A stretch of 24,933 nt of DNA from an uncultured Oscillospiraceae bacterium (GTDB lineage Bacteria > Bacillota > Clostridia > Christensenellales > Aristaeellaceae). Position numbers and translations under genes: made by a program. Below the pieces are notes generated by a model. That model worked only from the letters and a program-made list of their open reading frames with translations. It ran no database searches and was not told where the DNA came from. Positions 2,979 to 22,621 of this stretch are shown here, one piece after another; within the stretch, counting starts at the first letter, position 1; every line of letters starts with the position of its first letter. The DNA lies in assembly GCA_964426145.1 (NCBI GenBank), contig CAYRPW010000002.1, positions 1-24,933 on the forward strand, read 5' to 3'.

Positions 2979-3545
2979 ATGTCCATGCAGGCTTACATTC
3001 TGTCCGACGGCGAGTTCGACGGTGACCGGCTGCAAAGGCTCGGCGCCGCGGTGGAGCGCTGTTTGACCCAAAAGGGATTTGCGGTTACGCACAAGCGGCT
3101 GGAGCCGGGGGAGCTGAACCATTGCGTGGGCTGTTTCGGCTGCTGGGTGAAAACGCCGGGCCGCTGCGTGATCAAAGACTCGATGGACGGCATCAACCGC
3201 GCCGCCATGAACAGCGACGTAGTTGTCTATCTGGTGCCGCTGGTGTTCGGCCAGTTCTCCGCCAACATGAAAAACGCGGTGGACCGCTGGATTCCAAACA
3301 TACTGCCGTTTTTTCTCCTCAGGCCGGACGGTTCCACCATCCACCCGGCGCGTTACGAAAGCAATCCGCGCATCGTGATGATCGCTTACGGCGACAGCCT
3401 GACGGCGGAGGACAAAGCCCTGTTTACCGATATCACGGTCAGGCATCGCGCAAACGGGTCGGTGCTGTTTTATGAGGATAACGACGAAAAGCTTTCGCAG
3501 GCGCTGCTGGCCGTGGATTTGCGAAAGGCGGGGAGCGTCATATGA
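2979..3545 (+). CDS. Flavodoxin-like / iron-sulfur flavoprotein-like protein (NADPH-dependent FMN reductase superfamily)
   Basis: CVGCFGCWVKTPGRC cysteine cluster and DVVVYLVPLVFGQFSANMKNAVDR. Start moved to the ATG at 2979, which follows the SD GGAGGGA. Confidence 0.85.
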   Translation: MSMQAYILSDGEFDGDRLQRLGAAVERCLTQKGFAVTHKRLEPGELNHCVGCFGCWVKTPGRCVIKDSMDGINRAAMNSDVVVYLVPLVFGQFSANMKNAVDRWIPNILPFFLLRPDGSTIHPARYESNPRIVMIAYGDSLTAEDKALFTDITVRHRANGSVLFYEDNDEKLSQALLAVDLRKAGSVI

Positions 3546-4216
3546 GTGAGAAGAAACAGGTGGTCATCGTAAGCGCCAGCCCCAAGCCGCAGGGCAGAGC
3601 CGCGTCCGACCGGCTGGCGGAGGTGGCGGCGGCCGTGCTGCAAGACGATAGGGTGGGCGTGCAGATCATAAGCGCCCGGGAAACGCTGCAAACACGCGAA
3701 ACGGAGAAGGCGTTTGCGGCTATGGCCGCGGCGGACGCGCTGATCCTCGTGTTCCCGCTGTACGTTTTCTGCCTGCCGGGGATCACCATGCGGTTTTTGC
3801 AGCTGTACCGGGATTACGCGCTTCGGCTGCCCCTGCGCAGGCAGGCGGCGGTGTATGCCATCGTCAACTGCGGGTTTCCGGAGCCGGAAATCAACGAGGA
3901 GGCGTCGCGCGTCGTGGGCAGGTTCGCGTCGGCCGTCGGCGCGCGGTATGGATTTGGTATTTTGATCGGCGGCGGCGGCATGGTTTCGATGACGATCCCG
4001 CCCGTACAGAAAATGCTGACGAAGCTTACGGAGACGCTGCAGCGCGTGAAAGAAGAAATTAAAAGCGGCGCCTGCGCGCCTGCCCAAAGCGTATGCCTTC
4101 GCGTGGCCTTTCCCCGGAGGCTGTACTACTTTATGGGCAACATCGGCTGGAAGCGGTGGATCCGCAGCAACGGCAAACCCGTGAAGGACCTGTATGCGAG
4201 GCCGTACCAGCAATAA
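3542..4216 (+). CDS. Flavodoxin-like NAD(P)H-dependent oxidoreductase
   Basis: VVIVSASPK...SDRL, ADALILVFPLYVFCLPG and AIVNCGFPE motifs; ATGA overlap with the upstream gene, indicating translational coupling. Confidence 0.8.
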   Translation: MSEKKQVVIVSASPKPQGRAASDRLAEVAAAVLQDDRVGVQIISARETLQTRETEKAFAAMAAADALILVFPLYVFCLPGITMRFLQLYRDYALRLPLRRQAAVYAIVNCGFPEPEINEEASRVVGRFASAVGARYGFGILIGGGGMVSMTIPPVQKMLTKLTETLQRVKEEIKSGACAPAQSVCLRVAFPRRLYYFMGNIGWKRWIRSNGKPVKDLYARPYQQ

Positions 4217-4219
4217 ACA

Positions 4220-4248
4220 AAACCCGCGGGGGTTTTCCCCGCGGGTTT
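4220..4248. terminator. Bidirectional Rho-independent terminator
   Basis: Perfect 12-bp stem AAACCCGCGGGG / CCCCGCGGGTTT with a 5-nt loop, between the convergent flavodoxin and CotH genes. A-rich on the left and T-rich on the right. Confidence 0.85.
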
Positions 4249-4273
4249 ACTTTCTGTTCCCGCTTACTTTTGA

Positions 4274-5758
4274 TTACGGCGCGGGCGTCGGCGCGGGCGG
4301 GATTTCCGTGGGAAGGATCGCCGGCGGGGCGGTCGGCGTGGCCGTGGGCTTGGGGGTCGGCGTTGCGGAAAGGTTGCGCAGATAGGTTTCCAGGTTTTCG
4401 TCCATGTAGCGGCCCTTCAGCACAATCTCGTTTTTCAGCTGCGCTACGGCGTCTTCGAAGGTATATACGTTGCGGTTGCTGCCGTCTGCGGCGGCAGTCA
4501 GGATATCTTTTGCCAGGATTTTGTCCCACCGGTCAAAATTGCGCTGAGCGGCGGGGCCCAGGTAGGCGGCAATTTCGTCGATCATGGCCAGCAGCCGTTC
4601 TTCGCTGAGCACGGTTTTACGAAGTTCCCGGTAGCGGTAGACGACGGTGTTGACGAACGTCTTATCCAGCACCAGCACGTTGAACCAGTTCGCGCCGCTC
4701 ATCAGAATGGTGTCGTACGCCGTGGGGTCGATGTGGTTGTCCAGGCAGTTGTTAAAATCCCATACTGGGCCCATGATCAGCTTCCCGCGCGGGTCGCGGT
4801 AACAGAAGGTGGAAAACGTTCCGGCGTCGCGGTTCATGGCGAACTCGTTGAAAATGAAGTAATCCACGAAGGAGTTCATGTCGATCTCGTCGGCGAAGGC
4901 GCGGCTCTTGTCCCCGTCCTGCAGCGCGTAGAGCTTCTCCTCAAACGCGTTGATGTCGTTTAATATATACTGGATGCTTTCCTCGGTCAGGTCGGCGGCC
5001 TGCGGAAACTCTATGCCCATGTCGTAGGTGGTTTTGCCCAGCGTGTCCGAGTAGGTTTTAATGTGCGATTTGATGTACACGTACATATCCCGCTGCAGAA
5101 GGTAGCCGACGGCGCCTTTTGCGCCTTGCTTCTGGGATACGTTGACGCGGTTTTTACCCACGGTCACCGCTTCGGTCATCACGTACAGCCCTTCGTAGCT
5201 GCCGTCGATAAACACTTCGCAGAACTTCGCGTGCGGCGCCCAGACCATGATCTCGCCCGCCAGGTTGTACATCAGATAATTGCGCATCAGCGATTTATCC
5301 AGGTACGGCCCGTTGAGCACCCAGTCGGTATCCGCGGCCATGCCCATCACGGCGCGGTTCACATGGTTGCCGGAGGCGAGTTTTTTTGTGAAATTGATCC
5401 GGTATTGCTTTTTGGGAAATTCCGCGGACGTTTTGCCGCGGATATTGATCAGCGCCGCGTTCGTCAGCGCCGGTGTGTCCGTCGTGTGGTTGTAGCCTCC
5501 CGCCTGGTCGATCACGGTCACCGTGACGGGGAGCTGCGTTTCCCGGGTGATCGTCCCGCCGCCGGTTTCAATCAGCACCAGCGGAAGGTGGCTGGAAAAA
5601 ACGTCGCTGCCGACGTCGTACGCGTCCGGACCGGCGGCGGTTTCATGCTGGTAAATGCGCTCATACTGCGGCCACAGCACCTGCCGCGCCGTGGCGGCCA
5701 CGGCCGCGATGAGAACGACGACGATTGAAATCACAATAACGGTCAGCCTGTTACGCAC
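4274..5758 (-). CDS. CotH-family atypical kinase, N-terminally membrane anchored, with Pro/Thr-rich tail
   Basis: N-terminal TM segment; IRGKTS, KKQYRINF, DWVLNGPYLDKSLMRN, YEGLYVMTE, FNEFAMNRD and GPVWDFN motifs; C-terminal ATPTPKPTATPTAPP...PTPAP. GTG start. Confidence 0.88.
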   Translation of the reverse strand: MRNRLTVIVISIVVVLIAAVAATARQVLWPQYERIYQHETAAGPDAYDVGSDVFSSHLPLVLIETGGGTITRETQLPVTVTVIDQAGGYNHTTDTPALTNAALINIRGKTSAEFPKKQYRINFTKKLASGNHVNRAVMGMAADTDWVLNGPYLDKSLMRNYLMYNLAGEIMVWAPHAKFCEVFIDGSYEGLYVMTEAVTVGKNRVNVSQKQGAKGAVGYLLQRDMYVYIKSHIKTYSDTLGKTTYDMGIEFPQAADLTEESIQYILNDINAFEEKLYALQDGDKSRAFADEIDMNSFVDYFIFNEFAMNRDAGTFSTFCYRDPRGKLIMGPVWDFNNCLDNHIDPTAYDTILMSGANWFNVLVLDKTFVNTVVYRYRELRKTVLSEERLLAMIDEIAAYLGPAAQRNFDRWDKILAKDILTAAADGSNRNVYTFEDAVAQLKNEIVLKGRYMDENLETYLRNLSATPTPKPTATPTAPPAILPTEIPPAPTPAP

Positions 5759-5772
5759 CGCGCCGCACCTGC

Positions 5773-6450
5773 CTAACGGCTCATGTCGTCGGTCTGGGAA
5801 ACGAGGTTGACCATTTTCACGCCGTTGACGCGGTAGAGGAACTGCATGATGCTGTTGTCGTTGAGGCGGGTGGATTTTTTCACGTCCGCGCCGTTGATTT
5901 CGAAAATGAACTCCACGTCCTCGGGTGTGGTATTCTTCACCCGCAAAACGGGCTTTTTATAGTATTCCTGCACGATCATCTCGATGATTCCCTGCCGGGG
6001 CATGTCGCAGCGGATGACGAGAATGTACTTGTTGTCTTCGCGGATGTGGTGGAAGACCACCAAAAACAGCACCACCGAGGCGGAGCCGATGGCCGCCGCC
6101 AGATAGAAACCCACGCCGCAGCAGATGCCCACCGCGATGCTCCAGAAAATGAAGGTGGTGTCCCGCGCGTCCTTGATGGCCGTGCGGAAGCGCACGATGG
6201 ACAGCGCGCCCACCATGCCCAGCGACAGCGCGATGTTGTTGGAAATCACGGTCATCACCATGGAGGTGACCAGCGAGAGCATGATCAGCGAGATGTTGAA
6301 CTTTTTGGAGTAGGAAATTCCCGCGTAGGTCCAGGCATAAATGGCGTAAATCAGCATGCCCAGCACAAGCGTCACGCCTGCGTTCATCAGCAGCTGCTCG
6401 AGCTGGAGCGTGCCCTGTTCCGCCAGATTGTTCAGGATGTACTCTTTCAC
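5773..6450 (-). CDS. DUF4956-family membrane protein
   Basis: ISNNIALSLGMVGALSIVRFRTAIKDARDTTFIFWSIAVGICCG signature and an ACT-like C-terminus. The GTG at 6450 (after AGAGGT) is preferred over the track's 6462. Confidence 0.88.
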   Translation of the reverse strand: MKEYILNNLAEQGTLQLEQLLMNAGVTLVLGMLIYAIYAWTYAGISYSKKFNISLIMLSLVTSMVMTVISNNIALSLGMVGALSIVRFRTAIKDARDTTFIFWSIAVGICCGVGFYLAAAIGSASVVLFLVVFHHIREDNKYILVIRCDMPRQGIIEMIVQEYYKKPVLRVKNTTPEDVEFIFEINGADVKKSTRLNDNSIMQFLYRVNGVKMVNLVSQTDDMSR

Positions 6451-6523
6451 CGGCTTACACACCTCTGGTTTCTTTTGCCTGATGCGGGAGTGTTGCGTGG
6501 TTGCGGCCTCGTGCCGCCGGGGC

Positions 6524-7207
6524 TTAGTGCAGATCGGCGCGGCCGAGCACGTATTTGCTCATGGCCGCCGGCTGCGTATCCAGGTTCTTAAGCATCCCCT
6601 GCAGGTAGGAATACAGAAAGCCGTTGTATTTCACTTCCAGCACGCCCATGTCCGGGGCGATCAGCGGCGTGAAGTTCGCGTTGGCTACGAACAGGTTGCT
6701 GCTCTGCCAGGACGCGCGGATGTGCGAATCGTAGGTGATGCGGATATCGTTGCCCGGCGCGGCGTAGGCTTGCCGGTCATACTCGATGAGCACCTTGGGC
6801 TGGTAGACGCGCATCATCATTTCGTGATAAATCTGCGCGGCCAGCGGATCGGGAAGGTCAAGCAGGAAGCCGTAGTCGCCCGCCACCATCTGCCGGGCCT
6901 GCTTGCGCGTCAGCGGGATGGAGGTCTTGTGCTGGTTTACGCCCTGCTTGAACTTGTATTCCAGCTTGATGAGGCGGCCCTGGGGGGGATACACGCGCAC
7001 GCGGATCTTCTTGCGGGTTTCCGCGCCTTTCAAGACGTCGAAATAGTCTTCGTTATGGAAGGAGTCGAAATAGAGGGAGCGCACTTTGTACAGGCCGCTC
7101 GCGTCGCCGGCCGGGTCCGGCCTGAGCAGAAGCGAAAGCTTCGGTTCCAGCATCTTGAACTGCAGCAGAGGGATCAGGTACTTTATCTCTCTTCGTTCAA
7201 CGTTCAT
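6524..7207 (-). CDS. VTC-domain (polyphosphate polymerase / CYTH-like tunnel) protein
   Basis: RREIKY, VRSLYFDS, KKIRVRVY, KLEYK, IEYDRQAY, IRITYD, VLEVKY and SKY motifs. Start moved to the ATG at 7207, which follows the SD CAGGAG. Confidence 0.88.
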   Translation of the reverse strand: MNVERREIKYLIPLLQFKMLEPKLSLLLRPDPAGDASGLYKVRSLYFDSFHNEDYFDVLKGAETRKKIRVRVYPPQGRLIKLEYKFKQGVNQHKTSIPLTRKQARQMVAGDYGFLLDLPDPLAAQIYHEMMMRVYQPKVLIEYDRQAYAAPGNDIRITYDSHIRASWQSSNLFVANANFTPLIAPDMGVLEVKYNGFLYSYLQGMLKNLDTQPAAMSKYVLGRADLH

Positions 7208-7326
7208 TGCGCTCTCCTGTCGGGTTACTGCCGCCCCGGGCGTCTGGCCGCAAAGCCTTGGCCGCCGGGCTTTCCGCCGTAAAACTCCGCCGCACGGACG
7301 CGGTGTTGTGGTTCTCACGTGATTGC

Positions 7327-7355
7327 ATTATAGAATATATGAACCATTGTGTCAA
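7327..7355 (-). promoter_or_regulatory. Consensus sigmaA promoter for the VTC-DUF4956-CotH operon
   Basis: Minus strand: TTGACA (7355-7350), 17 bp, TATAAT (7332-7327); a perfect consensus match. Confidence 0.85.
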
Positions 7356-7395
7356 TTGTATTACAGAAATATTTCAAAAATATTTTGAATTTCGG

Positions 7396-7424
7396 TTGTA
7401 TTTTAAAACAAAGTCTGGTATGGT
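7396..7424 (+). promoter_or_regulatory. Promoter for the MBOAT/ACP operon
   Basis: TTGTAT (7396-7401), 17 bp, TATGGT (7419-7424), with a TGn extension. Confidence 0.6.
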
Positions 7425-7481
7425 GGTACCGTCGAACGCTGCCGCACCGGCGGTTACAACAGCAAACGGGAGGCGGTTCCC

Positions 7482-8942
7482 ATGGTGTTTTCAAGCGTCA
7501 CATTTATCGGCGTGTTTCTGCCTGCGACGCTGATCCTTTACTACCTGTCCAAAAACCGCACGGTCCGCAATGCCGTGCTTCTGGCCGCGTCGCTTTTGTT
7601 CTACGCCTGGGGCGAGCCGGTGTACATCCTCGCGATGATCGGCGTAACGCTGATTGATTACGTGTTCGGCATCATTCTGGGGAAAACGCACAGCAAGGCG
7701 GCGGGAGTGTGGCTGCTGGTGCTGTGCGTAACATTGAACCTGCTGCCGCTCATTACCTTCAAATATTACAATTTCTTTGCGGGCCAGCTCGGGCTGCTTT
7801 TCCATTTCTCGCCGCGGCTTCTTTCCGCGGCGATGCCCATCGGCATTTCGTTTTTCACCTTCCAGTCCTTAAGCTACGCGATCGACGTCTACCGCCAGAA
7901 TGCCAAAACCCAGCGCAACTACGCGCACGTTCTATTATATGTATCCATGTTCCCGCAGCTGATCGCGGGCCCCATCGTGCGCTATACCGACGTGGAGGAC
8001 GAGCTTTACAACCGCCGGGAAACCCCGGAGCAGTTCACCGAGGGCTGTTTCCGCTTTGCGGTGGGCTTCGCCAAAAAGGTGATCCTGGCCAACTACGCGG
8101 GGCAGGTGGCAAGCTATCTGCTCAACGACCTGTTCTCGTCGCTGTCGGTGTGCGGCGCGTGGATCGGCCTCGCCACGGCGGCGATCCAGCTGTTTTTCGA
8201 TTTCTCCGGCTATTCCGATATGGCGATCGGGCTGGGGCTGATGTTCGGCTTCCATTTTAAAGAGAACTTCAAATACCCCTACATGGCCCGGTCGATCACG
8301 GAATTCTGGGCGCGCTGGCATATCTCCATGGGCAACTGGTTCCGTGATTACGTGATGTATCCCATGGCGATGTCCGGCGGCTTTTCCCGGTTCAGCCGCG
8401 CCGTGCGCAAGCGTTTGGGCGCGCAGATGGGCAGCTTCCTTCCGTCCTCGGTCGCAACCGTGATCACCTTCGCGCTCATCGGCCTGTGGCACGGCGCGGA
8501 CTGGAACTTTATTCTATGGGGGCTGTATTTCGCGGTGTTCCTGGTCATCGAAAAAGCGCTGAAACTCAAGTGGCGGCGGATTGATAAAATTCCCGTCGCC
8601 TCCAACTTCGTCACCGTGCTCGTGGTGCTGCTGGGCTTCGTATTGTTCTATTACACGGATCTGGGCCAGATCGGGCATTTTTACGCGTTGCTGTTCGGGG
8701 CGGGCGGCGCGCAGCTGCTGCCGGGTGTGCGGGAGATGTCGCAAATCAACGGCATCGTGTGGCTGTACCCGGTGCTCGTCGTCGCCGTTACGCCGTGGCC
8801 CGCCCGGCTTGCGCGCAAATGGCTTGGAAACGGCAGGCGCTTCGTAATCTTTCGCACCGGCTGGACGGCGGTGCTGCTTGCGCTGGGGTTTGTGATGCTG
8901 CTTGGGCAGAGCTTCAACCCCTTCATCTACTTCCGGTTTTAG
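7482..8942 (+). CDS. MBOAT-family O-acyltransferase (AlgI/PatA/DltB-like)
   Basis: MVFSS...F, ASLLFYAWGEP, PIGISFFTFQSLSYAIDVY, FPQLIAGPIVRY, FDFSGYSDMAIG, EFWARWHISMGNWFRDY, catalytic GLWHGA (His codon 8490) and C-terminal FIYFRF; SD GGGAGG. Confidence 0.95.
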   Translation: MVFSSVTFIGVFLPATLILYYLSKNRTVRNAVLLAASLLFYAWGEPVYILAMIGVTLIDYVFGIILGKTHSKAAGVWLLVLCVTLNLLPLITFKYYNFFAGQLGLLFHFSPRLLSAAMPIGISFFTFQSLSYAIDVYRQNAKTQRNYAHVLLYVSMFPQLIAGPIVRYTDVEDELYNRRETPEQFTEGCFRFAVGFAKKVILANYAGQVASYLLNDLFSSLSVCGAWIGLATAAIQLFFDFSGYSDMAIGLGLMFGFHFKENFKYPYMARSITEFWARWHISMGNWFRDYVMYPMAMSGGFSRFSRAVRKRLGAQMGSFLPSSVATVITFALIGLWHGADWNFILWGLYFAVFLVIEKALKLKWRRIDKIPVASNFVTVLVVLLGFVLFYYTDLGQIGHFYALLFGAGGAQLLPGVREMSQINGIVWLYPVLVVAVTPWPARLARKWLGNGRRFVIFRTGWTAVLLALGFVMLLGQSFNPFIYFRF

Positions 8943-8953
8943 GAGGCGCGATT

Positions 8954-9262
8954 ATGCAGAACGTATACAGGGCAAGCACGGCTATACTCGCGCTGGTTCT
9001 TCTCACCGTCGCGGTGTTTTCCGTTTTCGCGTTCTTCAACGGCGCAACGCTGGTGTCAATGCAGGAAAACCGAACGCTGGCGAAGCTGCCCGCGCTCACG
9101 GCGGAAACGTGGTTTGGCGGCGGCTACGGCACGGCGCTGGACGAGTATCTGGGCGATCACGTGCTGCTGCGCGAGGAGCTGATCCCGGTCACCCGCGCGC
9201 TGGAACGGCTGATGCGCGTGCAGTCCCGCATCCGCATCATTGACATGGATAACCCGAACTGA
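8954..9262 (+). CDS. 102-aa membrane-anchored protein resembling the N-terminal module of DHHW/AlgJ-like proteins
   Basis: ATG at 8954 after the SD AGGAGG (inside track ORF 8759-9262). One TM helix is followed by ENRTLAKLP...TWFGGGYGTALDEYLGDHVLLREE, like the ENRxLAxxP...DxFxxR segment of DHHW proteins. Ends in TGA TAA. Confidence 0.7.
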   Translation: MQNVYRASTAILALVLLTVAVFSVFAFFNGATLVSMQENRTLAKLPALTAETWFGGGYGTALDEYLGDHVLLREELIPVTRALERLMRVQSRIRIIDMDNPN

Positions 9263-9290
9263 TAAGATTTGAAAAAGGGGAGAAACGCTT

Positions 9291-9530
9291 ATGATGGATA
9301 CGTTACAGGAGATTCTTGAGGAGATACATCCCGGCATTGATTATCAAAACGAAACCGCGCTGATCGACGACGGGCTGTTGGATTCCTTCAACGTCATCGC
9401 GATCGTCACGGAGCTGAACAACCGGTTCGGCATCCGCATCTCCATCAGCGATCTCGAACCGGAAAATTTCAATTCCATGCAGGCCATCCAGGCGCTTGTG
9501 GAACGGCACAGGCAGAAAAAAAGCCGCTGA
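9291..9530 (+). CDS. Acyl/aminoacyl carrier protein (DltC-like)
   Basis: 79 aa, acidic; LIDDGLLDSF phosphopantetheine-Ser motif and PENFNS; SD GGGGAG. Confidence 0.92.
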   Translation: MMDTLQEILEEIHPGIDYQNETALIDDGLLDSFNVIAIVTELNNRFGIRISISDLEPENFNSMQAIQALVERHRQKKSR

Positions 9531-9532
9531 CC

Positions 9533-11059
9533 ATGACCACGAACGTGTTGGCCTGGCTGGAACAAACGGCGGAGCGCATTCCCGATTGCACCGCCTTCTC
9601 CGGCCCGGAGGAACGGCTCACCTTCCGCACGCTGCAGGCGCGCGCCGCGGCTGCGGGCACCTTTTTGCACCCGTTTGTGCCGCCGCGCCGGGCCGTGGCC
9701 GTGCTGATGGATAAAAGCTGCGACGCCATCGTCGCCTGTCTGGGCGCGGTGTATGCGGGCGGCTTTTATGCGTATATCGACCGCACCCAGCCCGCGCAGC
9801 GCGTGCAGGCAATCCTCGGCCAGCTCAACCCCGCTGCCATCGTAACCGGCCGTACGCTGAAACCCCAGGCCGACGCGCTGATGGCGGGCTGCCCGGTGTT
9901 CACGGCGGAAGAGCTGATCGGCGGGCAGGCGGATCCGGCGGTTGTGCAGGCCGTCCGCCGGGACGCCATCGATACCGACCCGCTGTACTGCAACTTCACC
10001 TCGGGATCCTCGGGCACGCCCAAGGGCGTGCTGGTGTGCCACCGCTCGGTGATCGATTTCATCACAGTGTTTGCTGAGACCTTCGGCATTACGCAGCAGG
10101 ACGTGCTGGGAAACCAGGCCCCGCTGGATTTTGACGTGTCGGTGAAGGACGTGTTCACGGGGCTTTATACCGGCGCGGAGGTTGTGCTCATTCCCCGGGG
10201 ATACTTCACGTTTTTGAAAAAGCTTTTAGAACTTTTGGAGCAGCGCGGCGTGACCACGCTGACGTGGGCGGTGTCCGCCCTGTGCCTCCTGTCCACGATG
10301 GACGGGCTTGCCACGCTGCGCCCTTCGCGGCTCAGGCGGTTTATGTTCTCCGGCGAGGTGATGCCGCTGGACCATCTGCGCTATTGGCGCAAGCACTACC
10401 CGGACGCCCTGTTCGTCAACCTCTACGGCCCCACGGAGATCACCTGCAACTGCACCTACCACATCGTTCCCCGGAACGCGGATCCGGACGCGGCGCTTCC
10501 CATCGGCATTCCGTTTCCCAACGAACGGGTTTTCCTGCTGGACGAGAACAACGCGCCGGTAACCCGGCCGGATGCGGAGGGCGAGCTGTGCGTCAGCGGC
10601 ACGGCGGTTACGCTGGGCTACTACAATAACCCGCAGCGCACGGCGGAGGCGTTCGTGCAAAACCCGCTCAACACGGCCTATCCCGAGATCATCTACCGCA
10701 CGGGCGACCTTGCCCGCTACGGCAGCGACGGGCTTTTATACTTCGCCGGCCGGCGGGATTTCCAGGTTAAGCACCACGGCAGGCGCGTGGAGCTGCCGGA
10801 AATCGAAATCGCGCTGGCCGCCGCGGGCGCGAAACGCGCCTGCGCGCTGTATATGGACAAGGAGGAGCGCATCATTGCCTACGTGATCGCCGATCGGCCC
10901 CCGCAGGAGCTGATGAAGGCGCTGCGCCAGGCGCTGCCCGATTATATGATCCCGTCCGAAATCATCCCGGCTGTCACCCTGCCGCTGACGAGTAACGGCA
11001 AGCTCGACCGCAAGGCGCTCACCGAGGCCTGGCGCAGCCGGAAGGCGGACACCGTATGA
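9533..11059 (+). CDS. Stand-alone amino-acid adenylation enzyme (DltA-like aminoacyl-carrier ligase)
   Basis: Core motifs A3 FTSGSSGTPKG, A4 FDVSV, A5 NLYGPTE, A6 GELCVSG...GYYNNP, A7 YRTGDL, A8 GRRDFQVK..G.RVEL.EIE and A10 NGKLDR. Confidence 0.93.
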   Translation: MTTNVLAWLEQTAERIPDCTAFSGPEERLTFRTLQARAAAAGTFLHPFVPPRRAVAVLMDKSCDAIVACLGAVYAGGFYAYIDRTQPAQRVQAILGQLNPAAIVTGRTLKPQADALMAGCPVFTAEELIGGQADPAVVQAVRRDAIDTDPLYCNFTSGSSGTPKGVLVCHRSVIDFITVFAETFGITQQDVLGNQAPLDFDVSVKDVFTGLYTGAEVVLIPRGYFTFLKKLLELLEQRGVTTLTWAVSALCLLSTMDGLATLRPSRLRRFMFSGEVMPLDHLRYWRKHYPDALFVNLYGPTEITCNCTYHIVPRNADPDAALPIGIPFPNERVFLLDENNAPVTRPDAEGELCVSGTAVTLGYYNNPQRTAEAFVQNPLNTAYPEIIYRTGDLARYGSDGLLYFAGRRDFQVKHHGRRVELPEIEIALAAAGAKRACALYMDKEERIIAYVIADRPPQELMKALRQALPDYMIPSEIIPAVTLPLTSNGKLDRKALTEAWRSRKADTV

Positions 11060-12234
11060 ACCGGGCGGAGCTTTTAAACCTCGCGGCGGCGTACGGAACG
11101 CCTTTGTACGTGTTCGATACCGACGCGCTTTCGCGCCGCACGGCGCTGGTGCGCGACGCATTTTCAAACGCCGTGCGCCTGTGCTATTCCATCAAGGCCA
11201 ATCCGTTCTTAACGGGCTGCGCGCCCATGGAGCTTCTGGAGGTATGCAGCCCCGGCGAGCTTGCCATCTGCCGGGCGCTCCGCGTGCCGCCGGAGCGCAT
11301 TCTGCTCAGCGGCGTCAGCAAAACGGAGCGGGACGTTGCGGACGCGCTCGATTACGGTGTGAGAACCCTGACCGCCGAAAGCCCGCTGCACGCGGAACGT
11401 ATCGAGGCCGCGGCAGCGCAGAGGGGGCTGACCGTCGATCTGCTGCTTCGGCTTACGGGCGGCGATCAGTTCGGCATGGACGGGGCAGCCGTGCGCGAAC
11501 TGGTGCGCGGCCGGGATGCCTTCAAGCACCTGCGGATGCAGGGCCTGCACTTTTTTTCCGGCACGCAGAAGAAAAACAAGGCGGCGGCCGAGCGAGAGCT
11601 TACGATGCTTGCCGATTTTGCCGACGGCCTGGAGCGCGATTTCGGCTTTGCCGGGCGGCGCCTGGAATATGGCGCGGGGCTGTTTGCCGATTACTTCGGC
11701 GCGGACGCGGCCAAGCGCGAGGAACAGCTGCTTTTGGACGTTGCCCCGTTCGTGCGCAGGGCGGCGGAGCGCTTTGCGCTCACCGTGGAAATGGGGCGGT
11801 TCTTCGCCGCGTCCTGCGGGTACTACCTGACCTCGGTTGCGGACGTCAAGGTTTCCGATGGCAGGAATATCGCCATCGTGGACGGCGGCAATCACCAAAT
11901 TCAGTACGACGGGCTGCTGCTTGCGCCCGCGCCGCCGCCCGTGACTTTGCTTTCGGGCGACCGTCCGGCGGACGGCGAGTGGACGGTCTACGGAAGCCTC
12001 TGTTCGCGCGGGGACATTCTGGCGCGGGGCGTGAAGCTTCCCGCGCTGCGCCTTTCCGACGTGCTGTGTTTCGGGCAGGCGGGGGCGTACGCGGTGACCG
12101 AGGGCATGGCCCTGTTTTTAAGCCGCGATCTGCCCGCCGTGGTACTGTGGAGTAAAAGCGGAGGCGCGTCGCTTTTACGCGGGCATCTGTCCACGCACCT
12201 GTTCAGCACCCCATTCGCCCGGTTGGAGGAATAA
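11056..12234 (+). CDS. Fold-type III PLP-dependent decarboxylase (LysA/ODC superfamily, divergent)
   Basis: YGTPLYVFD, YSIKANP (PLP Lys, codon 11194), EVCSPGE, EMGR, VDGG, GSLCSRGD and GAY motifs; ATGA overlap with the adenylation gene. Confidence 0.88.
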   Translation: MNRAELLNLAAAYGTPLYVFDTDALSRRTALVRDAFSNAVRLCYSIKANPFLTGCAPMELLEVCSPGELAICRALRVPPERILLSGVSKTERDVADALDYGVRTLTAESPLHAERIEAAAAQRGLTVDLLLRLTGGDQFGMDGAAVRELVRGRDAFKHLRMQGLHFFSGTQKKNKAAAERELTMLADFADGLERDFGFAGRRLEYGAGLFADYFGADAAKREEQLLLDVAPFVRRAAERFALTVEMGRFFAASCGYYLTSVADVKVSDGRNIAIVDGGNHQIQYDGLLLAPAPPPVTLLSGDRPADGEWTVYGSLCSRGDILARGVKLPALRLSDVLCFGQAGAYAVTEGMALFLSRDLPAVVLWSKSGGASLLRGHLSTHLFSTPFARLEE

Positions 12235-12237
12235 TTT

Positions 12238-13104
12238 TTGAAAATCCATGCAATCGGCACACGGTTTCTGGATTATCCGCAGTACTGCGCGGTGGTGGAT
12301 GAGGCGCTTGCCGCCATCCACGCGCCGCTGCTGAACGGCCTGCCCCTGGCGGGAGACGCGCGGCGGCTGATTGATGCGAAGAGGCTTTTTTACGTGCGCG
12401 GCCGGGATCATCTGCTGCTTTTCAGCGCGCACGTTGGCTATTATAAGCTCTATTACGCCGCGCACGAGGACGCGGTGCTGACCATTCCGCCGACCGCCAT
12501 GCCCATCGTGGCCGATCAGGTGCGGCTTTCCACCCGGGAATGCCCGCGCTGCGACCAGCTGATGGCCCGAAGCTGTTTCACGCTCGACCGCGTGGACGTG
12601 CGCCTGGAACGGAAGCTGGACGCAAGCCTGCGCCGTTCGCAGTATATCCACGGCTCGCTGCCGCTGCATGCCGTTGCGGATTACGCGATGACCGGAGAGT
12701 ATTACAAAATCAATACGCTGCTGCGCGGCGCGTTCGACCCGTTGCTTGACGAACTTCCCGGCAGGGACGAACTGATGCGGAGCATTCAGGACGGGTTTGT
12801 GTTCGTGGTCCGCGACGCGGAAAAAATCGCGGCCGTGATGGTCTGCATCCCCAAAGGCGCCATGGTGCTGCTGCACTGGATTGCCGTGGACAAGAAGTAC
12901 CGCAACCAGAATTTGAGCGGCCTGCTGCATTTCTTCGGCGATACCCAATGCCGGAGGAAAGGCTTCCGCCAGGAGGCCCTGTGGGTGGACGAGCATGCCG
13001 CCGGGTGGATCGGGGCGGTGCGCAGACGGGGCTTCCATTTGACCGACCAGCGGCTTTACACCTACGTGCATCCGCCCAATTGCGAAAACCCTTCATACGC
13101 TTGA
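12238..13104 (+). CDS. GNAT-family acyltransferase-like protein
   Basis: TTG start after the SD GGAGGA. The C-terminal GNAT domain carries LHWIAVDKKYRNQNLSGLL (motif A-like) and ends in RRRGF. The N-terminal half is of uncertain fold. Confidence 0.7.
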   Translation: MKIHAIGTRFLDYPQYCAVVDEALAAIHAPLLNGLPLAGDARRLIDAKRLFYVRGRDHLLLFSAHVGYYKLYYAAHEDAVLTIPPTAMPIVADQVRLSTRECPRCDQLMARSCFTLDRVDVRLERKLDASLRRSQYIHGSLPLHAVADYAMTGEYYKINTLLRGAFDPLLDELPGRDELMRSIQDGFVFVVRDAEKIAAVMVCIPKGAMVLLHWIAVDKKYRNQNLSGLLHFFGDTQCRRKGFRQEALWVDEHAAGWIGAVRRRGFHLTDQRLYTYVHPPNCENPSYA

Positions 13105-13129
13105 CTTACACGCTTCACAGAATTATAAT
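13101..13129 (+). promoter_or_regulatory. Internal sigmaA promoter upstream of the DHHW lipoprotein gene
   Basis: TTGACT (13101-13106, overlapping the GNAT TGA stop), 17 bp, TATAAT (13124-13129). Confidence 0.75.
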
Positions 13130-13181
13130 AATATTGGAAAACTGTGTTAAGAGAAAAGAATCGGATGCTGGAGGCACGATC

Positions 13182-14264
13182 ATGAAGAAATGGCTTGCTG
13201 TTCTACTCCTTCTCGCGATAGCGCTCTTTCTCACTTCCTGCGGCGGCGGGGAACCCGCGCCTACGGCCGCGCCGGACGAAAGCGCGAGCACCGCGATCGA
13301 CGAAACCGCGGAGGAGCAGGGCGGCGCTCTCCCTGTCACACAGACCGAAACGGCCAACGACTTGGATAAAACCGAGTTCATCGTCTACGAGGACCGCATT
13401 TTCTTCATCTCCAAATCCAGCCCCGAGGTGGAAGCCACCCTTGCGGACGCCATGAACGCCCTGTTCCGGTCGCTTCCCGACAGCGTGTCCAAATACCTGA
13501 TGATCGTTCCCACCCGGATCGCCTACGAGGTGGCGGAGGTGCAGGAGCTCTCCTCCGACCAGAAGGCCGAGATCAAGAATATCTATATGGCGATCGATTC
13601 CACCGTCACGCTGGTGGACGCGTATTATGCCCTCAACGAACACGCCGCGGATTTGAACGCCATCTACTACCGCACCGACCACCACTGGACGCATCTGGGC
13701 GCGTATTACGCGGCGCAGGCGTTCTTCGAAGCCGCGGGGATTGCCTATCATCCGCTGGAGGATTACGAACCCCACGACGGCGGCACGTTCCTGGGCTATC
13801 TGCAGGACCTCGCCAACGACCCGTATTTCTACGACAAACCCGATTCCATCACCTATTATCTTTTGCCCGGCGTCAACCACAAAGAGTGGATCTACTATAA
13901 GGACGTTGAAACCGGCGAGATGGAAATGACCGAAACCACCGCGGTGGACGATACGCGCCCGGCCTATGAAAAGTTCGTGGGCGTCAACGGCTTCTCGCAT
14001 GCGATCCTCTTTGGCAACGAGGAGAGCGACCGTTCGCTGCTTCTGGTGGGCTACTCGTTTTCCAACGCCATCTCCACCTGGCTTGCGGACAGCTTCCGCA
14101 CCGTTGTGCTGGTCGATCCCCGGTATTACGAGGACGGCCGGGAGGGCCTGGGCGAGCTGATGGATACCTATAACGTGACCGACGCGCTCTTGTTGATCTC
14201 GACGTCGGATTCCTCTGCGGTGGTCAACAACTTCAGCTCCTATATCGGGCGGCTGATTCAGTAG
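13182..14264 (+). CDS. DHHW-family (AlgJ/AlgX-like, permuted SGNH) acyltransferase lipoprotein
   Basis: Start moved to the ATG at 13182 (SD GGAGG). Lipobox LTSC; YYRTDHHWTHLGAYYA (13665-13712); LLLVGYSFSNA (Ser codon 14055) and VLVDPRYY. Confidence 0.88.
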   Translation: MKKWLAVLLLLAIALFLTSCGGGEPAPTAAPDESASTAIDETAEEQGGALPVTQTETANDLDKTEFIVYEDRIFFISKSSPEVEATLADAMNALFRSLPDSVSKYLMIVPTRIAYEVAEVQELSSDQKAEIKNIYMAIDSTVTLVDAYYALNEHAADLNAIYYRTDHHWTHLGAYYAAQAFFEAAGIAYHPLEDYEPHDGGTFLGYLQDLANDPYFYDKPDSITYYLLPGVNHKEWIYYKDVETGEMEMTETTAVDDTRPAYEKFVGVNGFSHAILFGNEESDRSLLLVGYSFSNAISTWLADSFRTVVLVDPRYYEDGREGLGELMDTYNVTDALLLISTSDSSAVVNNFSSYIGRLIQ

Positions 14265-14306: not shown

Positions 14307-16193
14307 TTGCGGGGGAGTTTGCGCAGGGTTTGGCTGGCGGTACTCGTGGCCGTGCTTGCGGCGGTGCTTGCTTCCTGCAGCGCGCTGGTCGTGCGGGAAC
14401 TGCCGCTGGACAAGCGCCTGGAAGACGACGTGCTGACCTATCTGCGCTCCCGCGCGGGCGACGCGGTGGAACTCTACAAACTGACCATCGACAGCCGGGA
14501 CTACCGGGAAGCGCAGGGCACCCTCGCCTACGAGTGCACCGCGATGCTGACCTGGGACCCGTTCAGCCAGACGGCTGAACAGCAGATCCGCCTTTCCTAC
14601 CGGCTGACGGACGACGCCTGGGTTCTCGTGTCGGCGGACAGCGACATTACCCAGGAGGATCTGGACGCCCGGCTGACCATGCACAGCCTGTTTGTGGAAA
14701 CGGTCGACCTTCCCTCCGCCGTGCTCAACGCGCTGACGGGCGCGGATACCCCGATGTCGGACACGCTGTTCGATTTCACGGCGCAGCTGCACGGGCGCGT
14801 GTACCGCTTCCCCTGCCCGTATGCGGACCTTATTCTCAGCGGCTGGGAAATCGCCCCGGATTCGGATATCACCATGCTCACCACCATCGCGGCGCAGTCC
14901 TTCATCACCGTTCCCATGGAAAACGAAGGCGAAACGGTGACCTTCTACGTCGCCAACCAGACGGCGAGCACCATCTATGCCGGGGCGGGCATGTGCGTGG
15001 GCGGCATCGTCCGCTCGCCAAACGCCGCGGTAACGCTTGCGGGCGGCATCACCGCCCAGTCCGCGGCGGAAGACGTGCTTGCGGCCTACGGAACGCCCAC
15101 GGCGGATGAAACCGCCGAAACCGGGCGCAAACTCACCTATCAGGCGTCGGCCAACAACCGCATCAGCTTCCTGTTCTCCGATACGGGAACGCAGATCGTG
15201 CTGTTCACCCTGAAAAAGCAAACGGCCAAGGTGCAGCCGGCCGAACTGTTTACTTCGTACCGGTTCACCTTCACGCTGGAGGGCAGGGATTACGCCCTGC
15301 CAACCCGCCTGGACAGCCTTCTTAACAACGGCTGGACGATCGCGGGAACGCAGAAATCCACCGATGCGATCGCCTGGTACGAAAGCCGGGAGCTGACCCT
15401 GCAAAAGGGAACCGCAAGCGTTGACGTGGTGGTCAACAACCTGACCATGGGCGACTTGCGCCTGTACGCCGCAAGCGTAACGGGGATCACGCTGGACAAC
15501 AGCCGCGCGGCCTTCGCCCTGACGGACGTCAGAACCGGCGTAAGCGACGTGCGGTCCACCCGGACCTACGCGCAGATCCTGACGGCGCTGGGCGAGCCCA
15601 GCGACACCGATGCGGCGGCGCAGACCGCAACCTACCGTACGGACGACGGCCGCTCGGTAAGCCTCACCGCGCAGGAGGCGGGCGTCGTGCTCACGCTGCA
15701 GGCCGCCGAGGCGGACGACGAGGCGACCGGCACCCTTGCGGATACGGCGCTGCGGGTGAACGTAGGCGGCAACGCCTACACCCTTCCCGCCGACGCGTCG
15801 CTATTCCGGGATAACGCGTGGATCCCCCAGCGCGGCTGGCAGCAGCTCGTGGGCAGCGGCAGCTTCGTGCAAATGGACATGGAGGGCCGCAGGGCGGAAA
15901 CGGTCACCGCGTACTTCATCAACACGGGCGCGGACACGCAAACGCTGGCAACCTGCCGCATCGGCGGGCTGTACGCAGGCCCGGGCGCGGCCGATATCAT
16001 CGTCAGCCGGTCCGTGCAGCAGGAAGCGGAAATTGCCGAGGCGTTCAACATTCTGGGCATCCCGGCGTTCGATCTGCAGGACGGCGGCTACCGGTACCTG
16101 GTATACGGCACGTCGGTCAACCACTTCCTGTGCCTCCGGTGTTCGGGCGATCTGATCGACGCCCTGTGGATCGTATGCTTTACGTATCATTGA
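14307..16193 (+). CDS. Lipoprotein of unknown function with three ~162-aa internal repeats
   Basis: TTG start after the SD GGAGGAG; lipobox LASC. Repeats with the pattern xxLxGxxYxLP...LxxxxW start at 14769, 15258 and 15744. Confidence 0.75.
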   Translation: MRGSLRRVWLAVLVAVLAAVLASCSALVVRELPLDKRLEDDVLTYLRSRAGDAVELYKLTIDSRDYREAQGTLAYECTAMLTWDPFSQTAEQQIRLSYRLTDDAWVLVSADSDITQEDLDARLTMHSLFVETVDLPSAVLNALTGADTPMSDTLFDFTAQLHGRVYRFPCPYADLILSGWEIAPDSDITMLTTIAAQSFITVPMENEGETVTFYVANQTASTIYAGAGMCVGGIVRSPNAAVTLAGGITAQSAAEDVLAAYGTPTADETAETGRKLTYQASANNRISFLFSDTGTQIVLFTLKKQTAKVQPAELFTSYRFTFTLEGRDYALPTRLDSLLNNGWTIAGTQKSTDAIAWYESRELTLQKGTASVDVVVNNLTMGDLRLYAASVTGITLDNSRAAFALTDVRTGVSDVRSTRTYAQILTALGEPSDTDAAAQTATYRTDDGRSVSLTAQEAGVVLTLQAAEADDEATGTLADTALRVNVGGNAYTLPADASLFRDNAWIPQRGWQQLVGSGSFVQMDMEGRRAETVTAYFINTGADTQTLATCRIGGLYAGPGAADIIVSRSVQQEAEIAEAFNILGIPAFDLQDGGYRYLVYGTSVNHFLCLRCSGDLIDALWIVCFTYH

Positions 16194-16235
16194 GATTTTG
16201 AACTGTCACAGACAGTGAAAAGGAGCAGCCAGAAC

Positions 16236-17753
16236 ATGGGTGAGAAGAACCAGAACCAGACCCAGATCGAAAAGCTCATTGAAATGGCTAACCAGCTGGA
16301 GCAGCGGGAGCTTGCGCTCAGCCGGGAGACCCGGTACCTGGAGGAAATGAAGGCGTCGCTGGAAGCGCAGGAGAAGAAATTCTCCGCCGTCAAGGCGGAG
16401 CGCCCCGAAGGAGTGTTCCAGGAGGGGCAGGCTCCGCAGCCTAAGCCTGTGCTCCGGGAAAAACCAATAGGCCAGCCCGCGGCGGAGGTGCAGCCCGCAC
16501 CTAAACCCGCAGTGCGCCAGGCGGCTGCCGCGCCCGCGTCCCAGCCCGTACGGCAGGCTGCCGCCGCGCCCGTATCCGCGCCCCAGCCCATGCGCCAGGC
16601 GGCTCCCGCGCCCGTATCCGCGCCGATGGCCGTATCCGCGCCTGCCGCGCAGAAACCCGTGCCGCAGAAATCCGCCGCCGATGCCGTTACGGAAATCAAC
16701 CAGATTTTGCAGTCCATTTTCTGGGACTATTCCAACAGCGTACACCAGATCAGCTCGCAGCTATCCACGGTAACGGCGGCCATGATGTGCGCGGCGGTGA
16801 CCTGCGTGCTGGAAAACCGCGGCTTCAACACCAAGGACGTTTTCCTGCAGGAAATGGAAAAGCTGCTGCAAAGCGGCGGTTTTGGCAGCTCCTGCGGCGT
16901 TGCGGCGGAACGCCCCGCGCGGCCTGCGCCTGTAACCCGGCCTGCCGCGGAAACCCCCGCGCCGGCGGCGGCCAAACCATACGCTCCCGCCGTTGCCGTT
17001 CCCGCCCCCAAGCCCCCCACGCTGGACGCGGATGAGGACGACGACGACGTTATGGCCGCGGGCGGCATGCCGATGCCCCAGCAGCAGGAGGCGGGCGTCG
17101 TGCGGATCAACAGCCTGTCGGAATTCCAGAAACTCGGCGAATACGGCTTCCGCAACGATGAGAAAATCGTCCGCGTGGAACTTCCGGAGGGCGTGCAGCA
17201 TCTGCCGGGGAGCTTCTTCTACGGCTGCAGCAACCTGGTGGAAGTATGGCTGCCGGACTCGCTGCAGGAAATCGGGCCCTACGCGTTCTACGGCTGCGAA
17301 TCTCTGGAGACCGTGCATATGAGCGACAACGCCACGCTTTTGGAAATCGGCGAGTATGCGTTTGCCATGTGCTCGTCGCTTGTGTCGTTTACGGTTCCGG
17401 CCTCGGTGGAAACGCTGGGCACCAGCGTGTTCCGCTTCTGCGCGAAGCTGGAAAAAGTAAGCTTCTCCCGGGAGAGCAAGCTGCAGACCATCGGCAGCCA
17501 CCTGCTGCAAAACTGCACGGCGCTGGATAAGATGCGCCTGCCCGATTCCATTGCCGTGATCCCCACCAGCATGTTCTACGGCTGTTCCAGCCTGAGAAAG
17601 GTGGTTGCCAAGGGCGTGGATACCATCGAAGACTACGCCTTCTACGGCAACGAAGCGCTGCGCCTCATCCGCATCCGCACCAAGAAGAGCATATCGGCCC
17701 AGGCGTTTGAAGGCTGCGATCCGTCCCTGGAAATCGAGTACCTGAATTATTAA
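16236..17753 (+). CDS. BspA/TpLRR-type leucine-rich-repeat protein with N-terminal coiled coil and Pro/Ala-rich linkers
   Basis: About 8 repeats of LxxVxLPxSLxxIGxxAFxGCxx at 17166-17750. The ATG at 16236 after AGGAG is preferred over the track's GTG at 16215. No signal peptide is visible. Confidence 0.85.
   Translation: MGEKNQNQTQIEKLIEMANQLEQRELALSRETRYLEEMKASLEAQEKKFSAVKAERPEGVFQEGQAPQPKPVLREKPIGQPAAEVQPAPKPAVRQAAAAPASQPVRQAAAAPVSAPQPMRQAAPAPVSAPMAVSAPAAQKPVPQKSAADAVTEINQILQSIFWDYSNSVHQISSQLSTVTAAMMCAAVTCVLENRGFNTKDVFLQEMEKLLQSGGFGSSCGVAAERPARPAPVTRPAAETPAPAAAKPYAPAVAVPAPKPPTLDADEDDDDVMAAGGMPMPQQQEAGVVRINSLSEFQKLGEYGFRNDEKIVRVELPEGVQHLPGSFFYGCSNLVEVWLPDSLQEIGPYAFYGCESLETVHMSDNATLLEIGEYAFAMCSSLVSFTVPASVETLGTSVFRFCAKLEKVSFSRESKLQTIGSHLLQNCTALDKMRLPDSIAVIPTSMFYGCSSLRKVVAKGVDTIEDYAFYGNEALRLIRIRTKKSISAQAFEGCDPSLEIEYLNY
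16512..16643 (+). repeat. In-frame tandem repeat encoding (V/M)RQAA(A/P)AP(V)S(A)(PQ)P
   Basis: Units at 16512-16547, 16548-16589 and 16590-16625, plus a partial unit at 16626-16643; shared cores CAGGC and CCGTATCCGCGCC. Confidence 0.8.
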
Positions 17754-22527: not shown

Positions 22528-22621
22528 AGAGTTACAATAAACCTATAAACTAGCTAACTGGTTAACAAACCGGTACTTGGGCGGTGCGGCACACTGCGGG
22601 CGAAAGCGAGTGGGCACGGGA

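Follow-up and report, generated by a model that had tools for sequence, protein, structure and literature searches.

The window analysed here, a 24,933-nucleotide stretch of DNA from an uncultured Oscillospiraceae bacterium, carries seven tightly packed genes on its plus strand between positions 7482 and 14264, as delimited by open reading frame (ORF) calls and by family searches with Pfam and NCBIfam profiles. In order, the genes encode an MBOAT acyltransferase, a 102-residue membrane protein, a carrier protein, a stand-alone adenylation enzyme, a fold-III pyridoxal phosphate (PLP) decarboxylase, a GNAT-fold protein and a DHHW/AlgX-like lipoprotein. This operon is probably a carrier-protein-fed envelope acylation system, the predicted acyl group, beta-alanyl or 4-aminobutyryl, being made by decarboxylation on the carrier itself. 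No description of the cassette or of such a decoration was found in the literature.

From the observed gene set, motifs, conservation and co-occurrence, a series of chemical steps, a substrate and an acceptor can be proposed. The adenylation enzyme would activate Asp or Glu at the side-chain carboxyl and load it onto Ser32 of the carrier; the decarboxylase, which resembles BtrK, CtaF and VinO, would then strip the free alpha-carboxyl on the carrier to leave a beta-alanyl or 4-aminobutyryl thioester. At the cytoplasmic face, the MBOAT would accept the acyl group from the carrier onto its own Tyr483 in an FxYxxF shuttle, a transfer described for PatA and, via DltX, for DltB (PMC12148441). Finally, a split DHHW transferase, composed of an anchor and the lipoprotein, would esterify a hydroxyl of a surface glycopolymer, thereby adding positive charge.

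Conserved core, decarboxylase and adenylation pocket

A relative of the window decarboxylase is encoded in 546 species-representative genomes, as surveyed by a pattern scan with alignment of decarboxylase relatives. The genomes belong mostly to Oscillospiraceae, Ruminococcus (including R. albus), Acutalibacteraceae, Candidatus Limiplasma, Anaerovoracaceae, Mogibacterium and Eubacterium saphenum. Neighbourhoods were counted in the best 80 loci, where the adenylation enzyme and the carrier protein adjoin the decarboxylase in 79, and the MBOAT was counted in the 42 loci flanked by 8 kb or more on each side, lying at most 10 kb away in 38. By virtue of this co-occurrence, the carrier, adenylation enzyme and decarboxylase (the trio) and the MBOAT constitute a conserved core, and the cassette is common in gut and rumen Clostridia. 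The co-occurrence elsewhere on which the original prediction, an earlier reading of this DNA, had staked its proposal is therefore borne out for the decarboxylase.

The best NCBIfam match of the decarboxylase is the lysA model TIGR01048, with 155.7 bits against a cutoff of 297.9, and a better lysA candidate (275 bits) is situated elsewhere in the genome, on contig C93. Among solved proteins, its closest relative is the L-glutamyl-[BtrI] decarboxylase BtrK (E 2.4e-29; about 25-30% identity, estimated by eye from the alignment), compared with E 1.2e-22 for the best diaminopimelate (DAP) decarboxylase. In the alignment, the DAP-binding Glu of CE(S/T)GD is absent, the window reading CSRGD and BtrK CTPED; simultaneously, the Arg of (N/D)xIRxxLY is absent, the window reading QIQYDG. 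The sub-cutoff score, the closer kinship with BtrK, the lost DAP-binding residues and the better candidate on C93 together indicate that the enzyme is not LysA.

BtrK converts Glu-S-BtrI into GABA-S-BtrI (the 4-aminobutyryl form), the side-chain carboxyl being tethered to the carrier (PMC7857480), and CtaF converts Asp-S-CtaE into beta-Ala-S-CtaE while refusing free Asp (PMC7183216). VinO, acting on 3-MeAsp-S-VinL within the VinN/L/O set, and the Asp-loading FlvN system likewise exemplify on-carrier decarboxylation (PMC11284099). BtrK, CtaF and VinO decarboxylate only while the amino acid hangs on the carrier by its side chain (PMC7857480, PMC7183216, PMC11284099). The window decarboxylase shares with them the enzyme family, the tight linkage of its gene to those of a carrier and a loading enzyme, and the loss of the DAP-specific residues. 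However, those enzymes feed antibiotic biosynthesis, whereas the product in the window is proposed to go to a membrane acyltransferase; furthermore, the loaders BtrJ and CtaD are ATP-grasp enzymes, unlike the adenylation enzyme of the window.

The adenylation pocket is not DltA-like. Where DltA of B. cereus (3FCC, 3DHV) has L198, M and C269, the residues that set its D-Ala specificity (PMC11253843), the aligned window enzyme has V, K and S, respectively. The ten-residue specificity code was mapped by aligning the enzyme in HMMER with DltA, HitB and further PDB chains, together with motif positions in PheA numbering, and reads DVKTMSLCNK (D235, V236, K239, T278, M299, S301, L322, C330, N331 and K517). 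Position 239 is Lys or Arg in 77 of the 77 aligned cassette homologues, and Lys517 is present in all. Position 235 is Asp in 26 of them and Ile in 51 (the Ruminococcus type, IAR..SQASK), and 51 of the 77 possess no acidic residue at any of the ten code positions. Asp235 is the usual anchor of the alpha-amino group. Considering the invariant basic residue, the dispensable Asp235 and the obligatory PLP decarboxylase, the pocket fits an amino acid with two carboxylates that is attached to the carrier through the side-chain one, its amine not adjacent to the activated carboxyl and Lys/Arg 239 holding the free alpha-amino-acid end. In the same comparison, beta-Ala, GABA, Lys or D-Ala would fit poorly as the loaded substrate. 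Lys239 presumably marks Glu domains and Lys278 Asp domains in the Stachelhaus code table, an assignment that the literature consulted did not confirm.

The decarboxylases of the Asp235 and Ile235 loci have 66 near-invariant columns in common, and no column distinguishes the two groups; hence, the head group is probably common to both. By analogy, the likeness to BtrK and the Lys239 presumed for Glu-specific nonribosomal peptide synthetase (NRPS) codes would favour conversion of Glu to 4-aminobutyryl, and the lactam-forming tendency of 4-aminobutyryl esters would favour conversion of Asp to beta-alanyl. In the VinN-type enzymes, which activate side-chain carboxyls or beta-amino acids, the beta13-beta14 loop is one residue shorter and is accompanied by K330/R331, a bulky residue 236 and Ser301 (PMC11253843). 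The window enzyme carries V236 and S301, as in such beta-type enzymes (PMC11253843), and C/N at positions 330/331; its beta13-beta14 loop is one residue longer than that of HitB and equal to that of one NRPS A domain of 8XJZ. The original prediction proposed an acyl group other than D-Ala that is remodelled while on the carrier; this is still the best reading, given the V/K/S pocket and the kinship and missing residues of the decarboxylase.

The decarboxylase might instead use a metabolite in free form, converting Asp to beta-Ala, Glu to GABA or DAP to Lys, and the adenylation enzyme would then load the product for export, in keeping with the free substrates of most characterised fold-III decarboxylases and with lysA as the top profile match. 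Such an arrangement is quite unlikely: a pocket with an invariant Lys/Arg 239 and, in most homologues, no acidic code position suits Lys or a cationic omega-amino acid poorly, the best solved relative is the on-carrier BtrK, the DAP-binding residues are missing, and CtaF of the same family refuses the free amino acid (PMC7183216). On-carrier decarboxylation may also suggest a trio that supplies a small natural product with its starter or a side chain, as happens for butirosin, closthioamide and the macrolactams, the MBOAT then acylating a lipid or secreted molecule, since the characterised on-carrier fold-III decarboxylases are all from natural-product pathways (PMC7183216, PMC11284099, PMC7857480). 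That is very improbable, because the loci examined contain no polyketide synthase, NRPS condensation, ATP-grasp or tailoring genes, and because the partners of the trio, a shuttle-ended MBOAT and, in the window clade, an AlgX-like protein, are typical of polymer acylation (PMC12148441).

DltA, DltB and DltC are the top named NCBIfam models for three of the proteins, as would be expected of an ordinary Dlt operon that happens to adjoin lysA and a GNAT gene. This explanation is extremely improbable. All three scores fall far under the cutoffs, with 265.2 bits against 559.85 for the adenylation enzyme (DltA, TIGR01734), 175.8 against 375 for the MBOAT (DltB, TIGR04091) and 42.7 against 68 for the carrier (DltC, its best NCBIfam model). 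In addition, the D-Ala pocket residues are replaced, DltX and DltD are absent, and the decarboxylase, which is not LysA, is linked to the other trio members across hundreds of species. The exosortase-A ligase/decarboxylase pair (TIGR03098/TIGR03099) is a further relative, consisting of an AMP-forming ligase and a DAP-decarboxylase-like enzyme in surface-polysaccharide loci. The window proteins match both models far below the cutoff (206 bits against 592.35 and 143.5 against 478.45, respectively). The descriptions of that pair come from Proteobacteria in which PEP-CTERM/exosortase genes occur, and no exosortase-related family appeared in the Pfam scans of the window. By these profile and residue comparisons, the cassette is assigned neither to the Dlt family, nor to LysA, nor to the exosortase-A pair.

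MBOAT and split extracellular partner

The sole solved relatives of the MBOAT are the DltB structures 6BUG and 8JEM (84.6 bits), with the catalytic His aligned. Both His334, located in GLWHG (nt 8481-8495), and the RWH at residue 278 are aligned to DltB. Beyond the DltB-matching part the protein extends by about 115 residues, and its C-terminus, F481-I-Y483-F-R-F486 (nt 8922-8939), forms the FxYxxF acyl-shuttle motif. This motif ends every full-length cassette MBOAT, and seven ordinary MBOATs also have it. FxYxxF is the acyl-tyrosine shuttle of PatA and is carried in Dlt by the separate DltX, while all MBOAT/SGNH pathways except Dlt work with an acyl-CoA donor and lack a carrier protein (PMC12148441). 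Judged by these motifs, the window MBOAT belongs to the AlgI/PatA type and has the shuttle fused to it. The cassette is therefore a hybrid of a Dlt-like donor side and a PatA/AlgI-like membrane side, with a step of the BtrK/CtaF/VinO type between the two.

The DHHW partner, the predicted extracellular transferase, is split into two chains. Single-chain DHHW proteins of the same order open with a transmembrane helix and an 'ENRxLxxxP...Y..DQFxxR' module. Residues 11-93 of the 102-residue protein align to approximately residues 10-98 of these proteins in BLASTP (E down to 8e-9), and the DHHW lipoprotein aligns to approximately residues 105-443. The former is therefore taken as the putative detached N-terminal anchor module and the latter as the predicted catalytic module of a split extracellular transferase. 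The lipoprotein possesses the lipobox LTSC, with DHHW at residue 166 (nt 13677) and GYSFS at residue 290 (nt 14049). The 102-residue protein is conserved at 45-81% identity in the loci L009, L010, L011 and L110. It has no Pfam match even at E 1. It lacks FxYxxF and resembles DHHW N-termini, and is not a DltX; a DltD is also absent, the extracellular enzyme being DHHW/AlgX-like. The original description of the operon as DLT-like is consequently apt for the donor side, but needs qualifying in view of the AlgI/PatA-type MBOAT with its fused shuttle, the missing DltX and DltD, and the split DHHW partner.

The operon resembles Dlt in that a stand-alone adenylation enzyme loads a small carrier, and in its conserved-His MBOAT, FxYxxF shuttle and extracellular transferase (PMC12148441). 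Unlike Dlt, it adds a decarboxylase, carries the shuttle on the MBOAT instead of on DltX, and has a split DHHW/AlgX-like partner instead of DltD; DltB comprises about 400 residues without a fused shuttle, whereas the window MBOAT comprises 486 and ends in FIYFRF. With PatA/PatB, AlgI/AlgJ/AlgX and the MBOAT-DHHW pairs of Clostridia it shares the MBOAT length, the fused FxYxxF and the adjoining DHHW/AlgX-like partner. However, MBOAT-SGNH pairs use acyl-CoA and no carrier (PMC12148441), whereas the window has carrier, adenylation and decarboxylase genes inserted between the MBOAT gene and that of the catalytic DHHW module, the DHHW gene having been divided in two.

Recent mechanistic work recognises a single MBOAT pathway that depends on a carrier, D-alanylation, the other MBOAT/SGNH pathways operating without one (PMC12148441). 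If the proposed system is real, it would be a second widespread carrier-fed pathway and a new charge-modifying envelope decoration in abundant gut and rumen anaerobes, which could affect cationic-peptide resistance, host recognition and phage adsorption. On-carrier decarboxylation, so far found in antibiotic pathways only, would then also serve primary envelope biology. Meanwhile, the window variant suggests that MBOAT-SGNH pairs can switch donor type by acquiring a donor-making module.

Coupling of the trio to its partners

The gene order of the window is repeated in L009, L010, L011/L008 and L110, a recurrence that far exceeds chance, and it is maintained down to about 45-50% identity for both DHHW halves. 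The GNAT-fold protein, the 102-residue protein and the DHHW protein are limited to the three closest loci and L110. A second subgroup instead contains a hexapeptide acyltransferase, a 78-residue membrane protein and two LRR-like (leucine-rich repeat) proteins, and the R. albus loci contain the adenylation enzyme, carrier, decarboxylase and MBOAT with a 409-residue protein without a Pfam family. Culturable bacteria with the cassette include Ruminococcus albus KH2T6 and AR67 (loci L067 and L085) and Ruminococcus sp. JL13D9 (L061). No sequence similarity was found between the window DHHW lipoprotein and the proteins encoded after the MBOAT in these other subgroups, namely the 409-residue protein of R. 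albus and the 509- and 600-residue LRR-like proteins of the hexapeptide subgroup.

In ordinary DHHW loci of the same order, an MBOAT lies directly upstream in seven of eight, and a carrier, adenylation enzyme or decarboxylase is absent. These carrier-less MBOATs are 40-44% identical to the window MBOAT, compared with 30-37% for the main cassette MBOATs. In a maximum-likelihood tree, the window-type MBOATs group with the ordinary DHHW-partnered MBOATs (100/100), apart from the main cassette MBOAT clade. The adenylation code of the window is shared with L041, whose MBOAT is of the main cassette type, and L013, with that MBOAT type too, has the near-identical DIKTISVCNK. In the window clade the trio sits inside an otherwise carrier-less MBOAT-DHHW pair, so that it would either have been coupled to an MBOAT a second time, independently, or have exchanged the MBOAT partner typical of the main cassettes for another. 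The tree placement cuts both ways: the trio has been joined to MBOATs repeatedly, and the window MBOAT may still use acetyl-CoA. Coupling within the window clade is favoured by the conserved seven-gene order and by a joint loss of segments in L108. The chances seem about even that Clostridia of the gut, rumen and mouth, in no fewer than 546 species genomes, place a cationic omega-aminoacyl ester (beta-alanyl or 4-aminobutyryl), made by decarboxylation of Asp or Glu on a carrier, on a surface glycopolymer, and that in the window clade an AlgI/AlgJ-type pair captured a portable donor module, an O-acetyltransferase thereby becoming an aminoacyl transferase and the DHHW protein being split.

In L108, the MBOAT/anchor, adenylation/decarboxylase and DHHW/lipoprotein segments are all absent from the syntenic region while the intervening genes are present, and in L109 the MBOAT, adenylation enzyme, decarboxylase and DHHW protein are likewise gone. 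The joint absence in L108 looks like the decay of one functional unit. At L108:8509-9843, the carrier (78% identical) and the GNAT-fold protein (55%) alone are left intact of the cassette, reflecting either recent decay or a hint that the two act together.

The GNAT-fold protein is probably a neighbour or optional accessory and not a step of the pathway, as indicated by a double dissociation. In L010 its gene is a pseudogene, with an in-frame stop and an internal deletion, beside intact genes for the MBOAT, carrier, adenylation enzyme and decarboxylase; conversely, it is intact in L108 (with the carrier) and in L109 (alone), within a TetR / FMN-reductase / flavodoxin neighbourhood from which the cassette is otherwise gone. 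Only 15 homologues were found, all at least 52% identical. In L009 and L110 the gene occurs with the complete cassette and overlaps the stop codon of the decarboxylase gene; it is frameshifted in L011 (possibly a long-read assembly error) and is missing from the remaining approximately 75 cassette loci. By language-model features (Atlas look-up) and fold search the protein is generic, with a mean predicted local distance difference test (pLDDT) of 69.7 for the model; the fold matches include the carrier-complexed GNAT SbzI (8ZT4), at a generic level only. Soluble acyltransferases nevertheless recur beside the trio, with the hexapeptide type in 15 loci and in L062, and in some lineages they may cap the amine or carry out carrier-dependent transfer. 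Of the original prediction as a whole, the non-D-Ala group remodelled on the carrier and the coupling to the MBOAT are retained, the DLT-like label needs the qualification given above, and N-acylation by the GNAT-fold protein as a pathway step is not supported, the gene being clade-restricted, broken in L010 and outliving the cassette in L108/L109.

In L062 (Bacillota MAG (metagenome-assembled genome) OH_CDB_227, 3333-11400), a trio with the code DVKTMSLCNK has no MBOAT within 10 kb. It stands directly after genes for a MurJ-like flippase, a polysaccharide-deacetylase-like protein, a CapD-like sugar-nucleotide dehydratase and a 298-residue hexapeptide acyltransferase, and the donor of this trio may also serve cytoplasmic N-acylation of an amino sugar. 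This locus is one of several points that weigh against the proposed acylation system, as the missing MBOAT implies that export through an MBOAT is not the sole outlet of the trio. Furthermore, the use of an acyl-carrier donor by the window MBOAT is assumed, because the protein groups with carrier-less pairs, and its kin presumably use acetyl-CoA. The window adenylation enzyme retains Asp235, and its beta13-beta14 loop is not shortened as it is in the VinN type. In addition, a 4-aminobutyryl ester or thioester tends to cyclise to a lactam.

Several of these observations would also suit two unrelated units in one operon, namely an ordinary acetyl-CoA-dependent O-acetyltransferase pair of MBOAT and split DHHW protein and a trio, perhaps with the GNAT-fold protein as its acyltransferase, making a cytoplasmic product destined for another use. 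The 100/100 clustering of the window MBOAT with carrier-less MBOATs beside single-chain DHHW proteins, the MBOAT-free trio of L062 near a hexapeptide acyltransferase and sugar-nucleotide genes, and the joint retention of carrier and GNAT-fold protein in L108 all point in that direction. Two such units are unlikely, however, since 38 of 42 loci of other lineages couple the trio with an MBOAT, and in the window it lies between both DHHW halves, with gaps of 2-28 nt and an order kept down to about 50% protein identity. Moreover, the MBOAT, DHHW and adenylation/decarboxylase genes are lost jointly in L108 and L109, and the GNAT pseudogene of L010 coexists with an intact trio.

Elsewhere in the genome of the window, contig C230 (L093:1474-3006, minus strand) encodes a second stand-alone adenylation enzyme, 39% identical, beside a GNAT fragment and ClpB. 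Contig C303 (L001:3-1088, minus strand) encodes a further MBOAT, truncated, with 48% identity to the MBOAT of the main-cassette (hexapeptide) subgroup. A second decarboxylase of the window family was not found in this 91%-complete assembly.

Feature coordinates and neighbouring genes

The seven genes and their spacing were re-derived as originally described for a coupled operon, with intergenic gaps, in gene order, of 11, 28, 2, -4, 3 and 77 nt. The -4 is an ATGA overlap between the stop of the adenylation gene and the start codon of the decarboxylase gene. The true start of the DHHW lipoprotein is the one tabulated, with a signal peptide ending in LTSC, and 12948 merely begins the longest ORF. 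An ORF at 8902-9243 was considered as the gene of the small membrane protein and rejected, because it lies in another frame and reads as Arg-rich nonsense. The promoter-like sites derive from a consensus scan and are candidates by sequence match only.

Table 1. Features of the operon at 7482-14264 in the window.
Feature	Position (nt)	Strand	Details
MBOAT	7482..8942	+	486 aa; PF03062 74 bits
Small membrane protein	8954..9262	+	102 aa; one transmembrane helix and 'ENRxLxxxP' juxtamembrane module
Carrier protein	9291..9530	+	79 aa; PF00550 (PP-binding) 23.3 bits
Phosphopantetheine Ser32 of carrier	9384-9386	+	motif LLDSF
Stand-alone adenylation enzyme	9533..11059	+	508 aa; AMP-binding 204 bits; TIGR01733 335.6 bits (cutoff 317.4, passed)
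Fold-III (alanine-racemase fold) PLP decarboxylase	11056..12234	+	392 aa; PF02784 (Orn_Arg_deC_N) and PF00278 (Orn_DAP_Arg_deC)
PLP Lys47 of decarboxylase	11194-11196	+	motif SIKAN
GNAT-fold protein	12238..13104	+	288 aa; TTG start, GGAGG ribosome-binding site; weak PF13508/PF00583 over residues 177-266
DHHW/AlgX-like lipoprotein	13182..14264	+	360 aa; PF14286 97 bits (profile positions 138-385), PF16822 ALGX 36 bits
Candidate promoter TTGACT-17-TATAAT	13101..13129	+	11/12 consensus matches; 3' end of GNAT gene, upstream of DHHW lipoprotein
Weaker candidate promoter	9240-9268	+	10/12 consensus matches; upstream of carrier gene

Downstream of the operon, the plus strand at 14307-17753 encodes a 628-residue lipoprotein without a Pfam family (signal peptide ending in LASC), followed by a 512-residue BspA-type LRR protein. 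The 628-residue lipoprotein starts 42 nt after the DHHW gene, with no clear terminator between them. L108 and L109 have lost it along with the cassette but retain the LRR protein; LRR-like proteins also border the MBOAT in the hexapeptide subgroup. Upstream, the minus strand at 4274-7355 carries a tight operon of a VTC-domain protein (6524-7318), a DUF4956/MgtC-like membrane protein (5773-6462) and a CotH kinase-like protein (4274-5758), for which a perfect TTGACA-17-TATAAT promoter-like site is located at 7355-7327. This block is missing from the otherwise syntenic L108, L109 and L110. Towards the end of the window, at 22577-24931 on the plus strand, the frame of a CBM35-GH26 mannanase (785 residues so far) runs past the window end.

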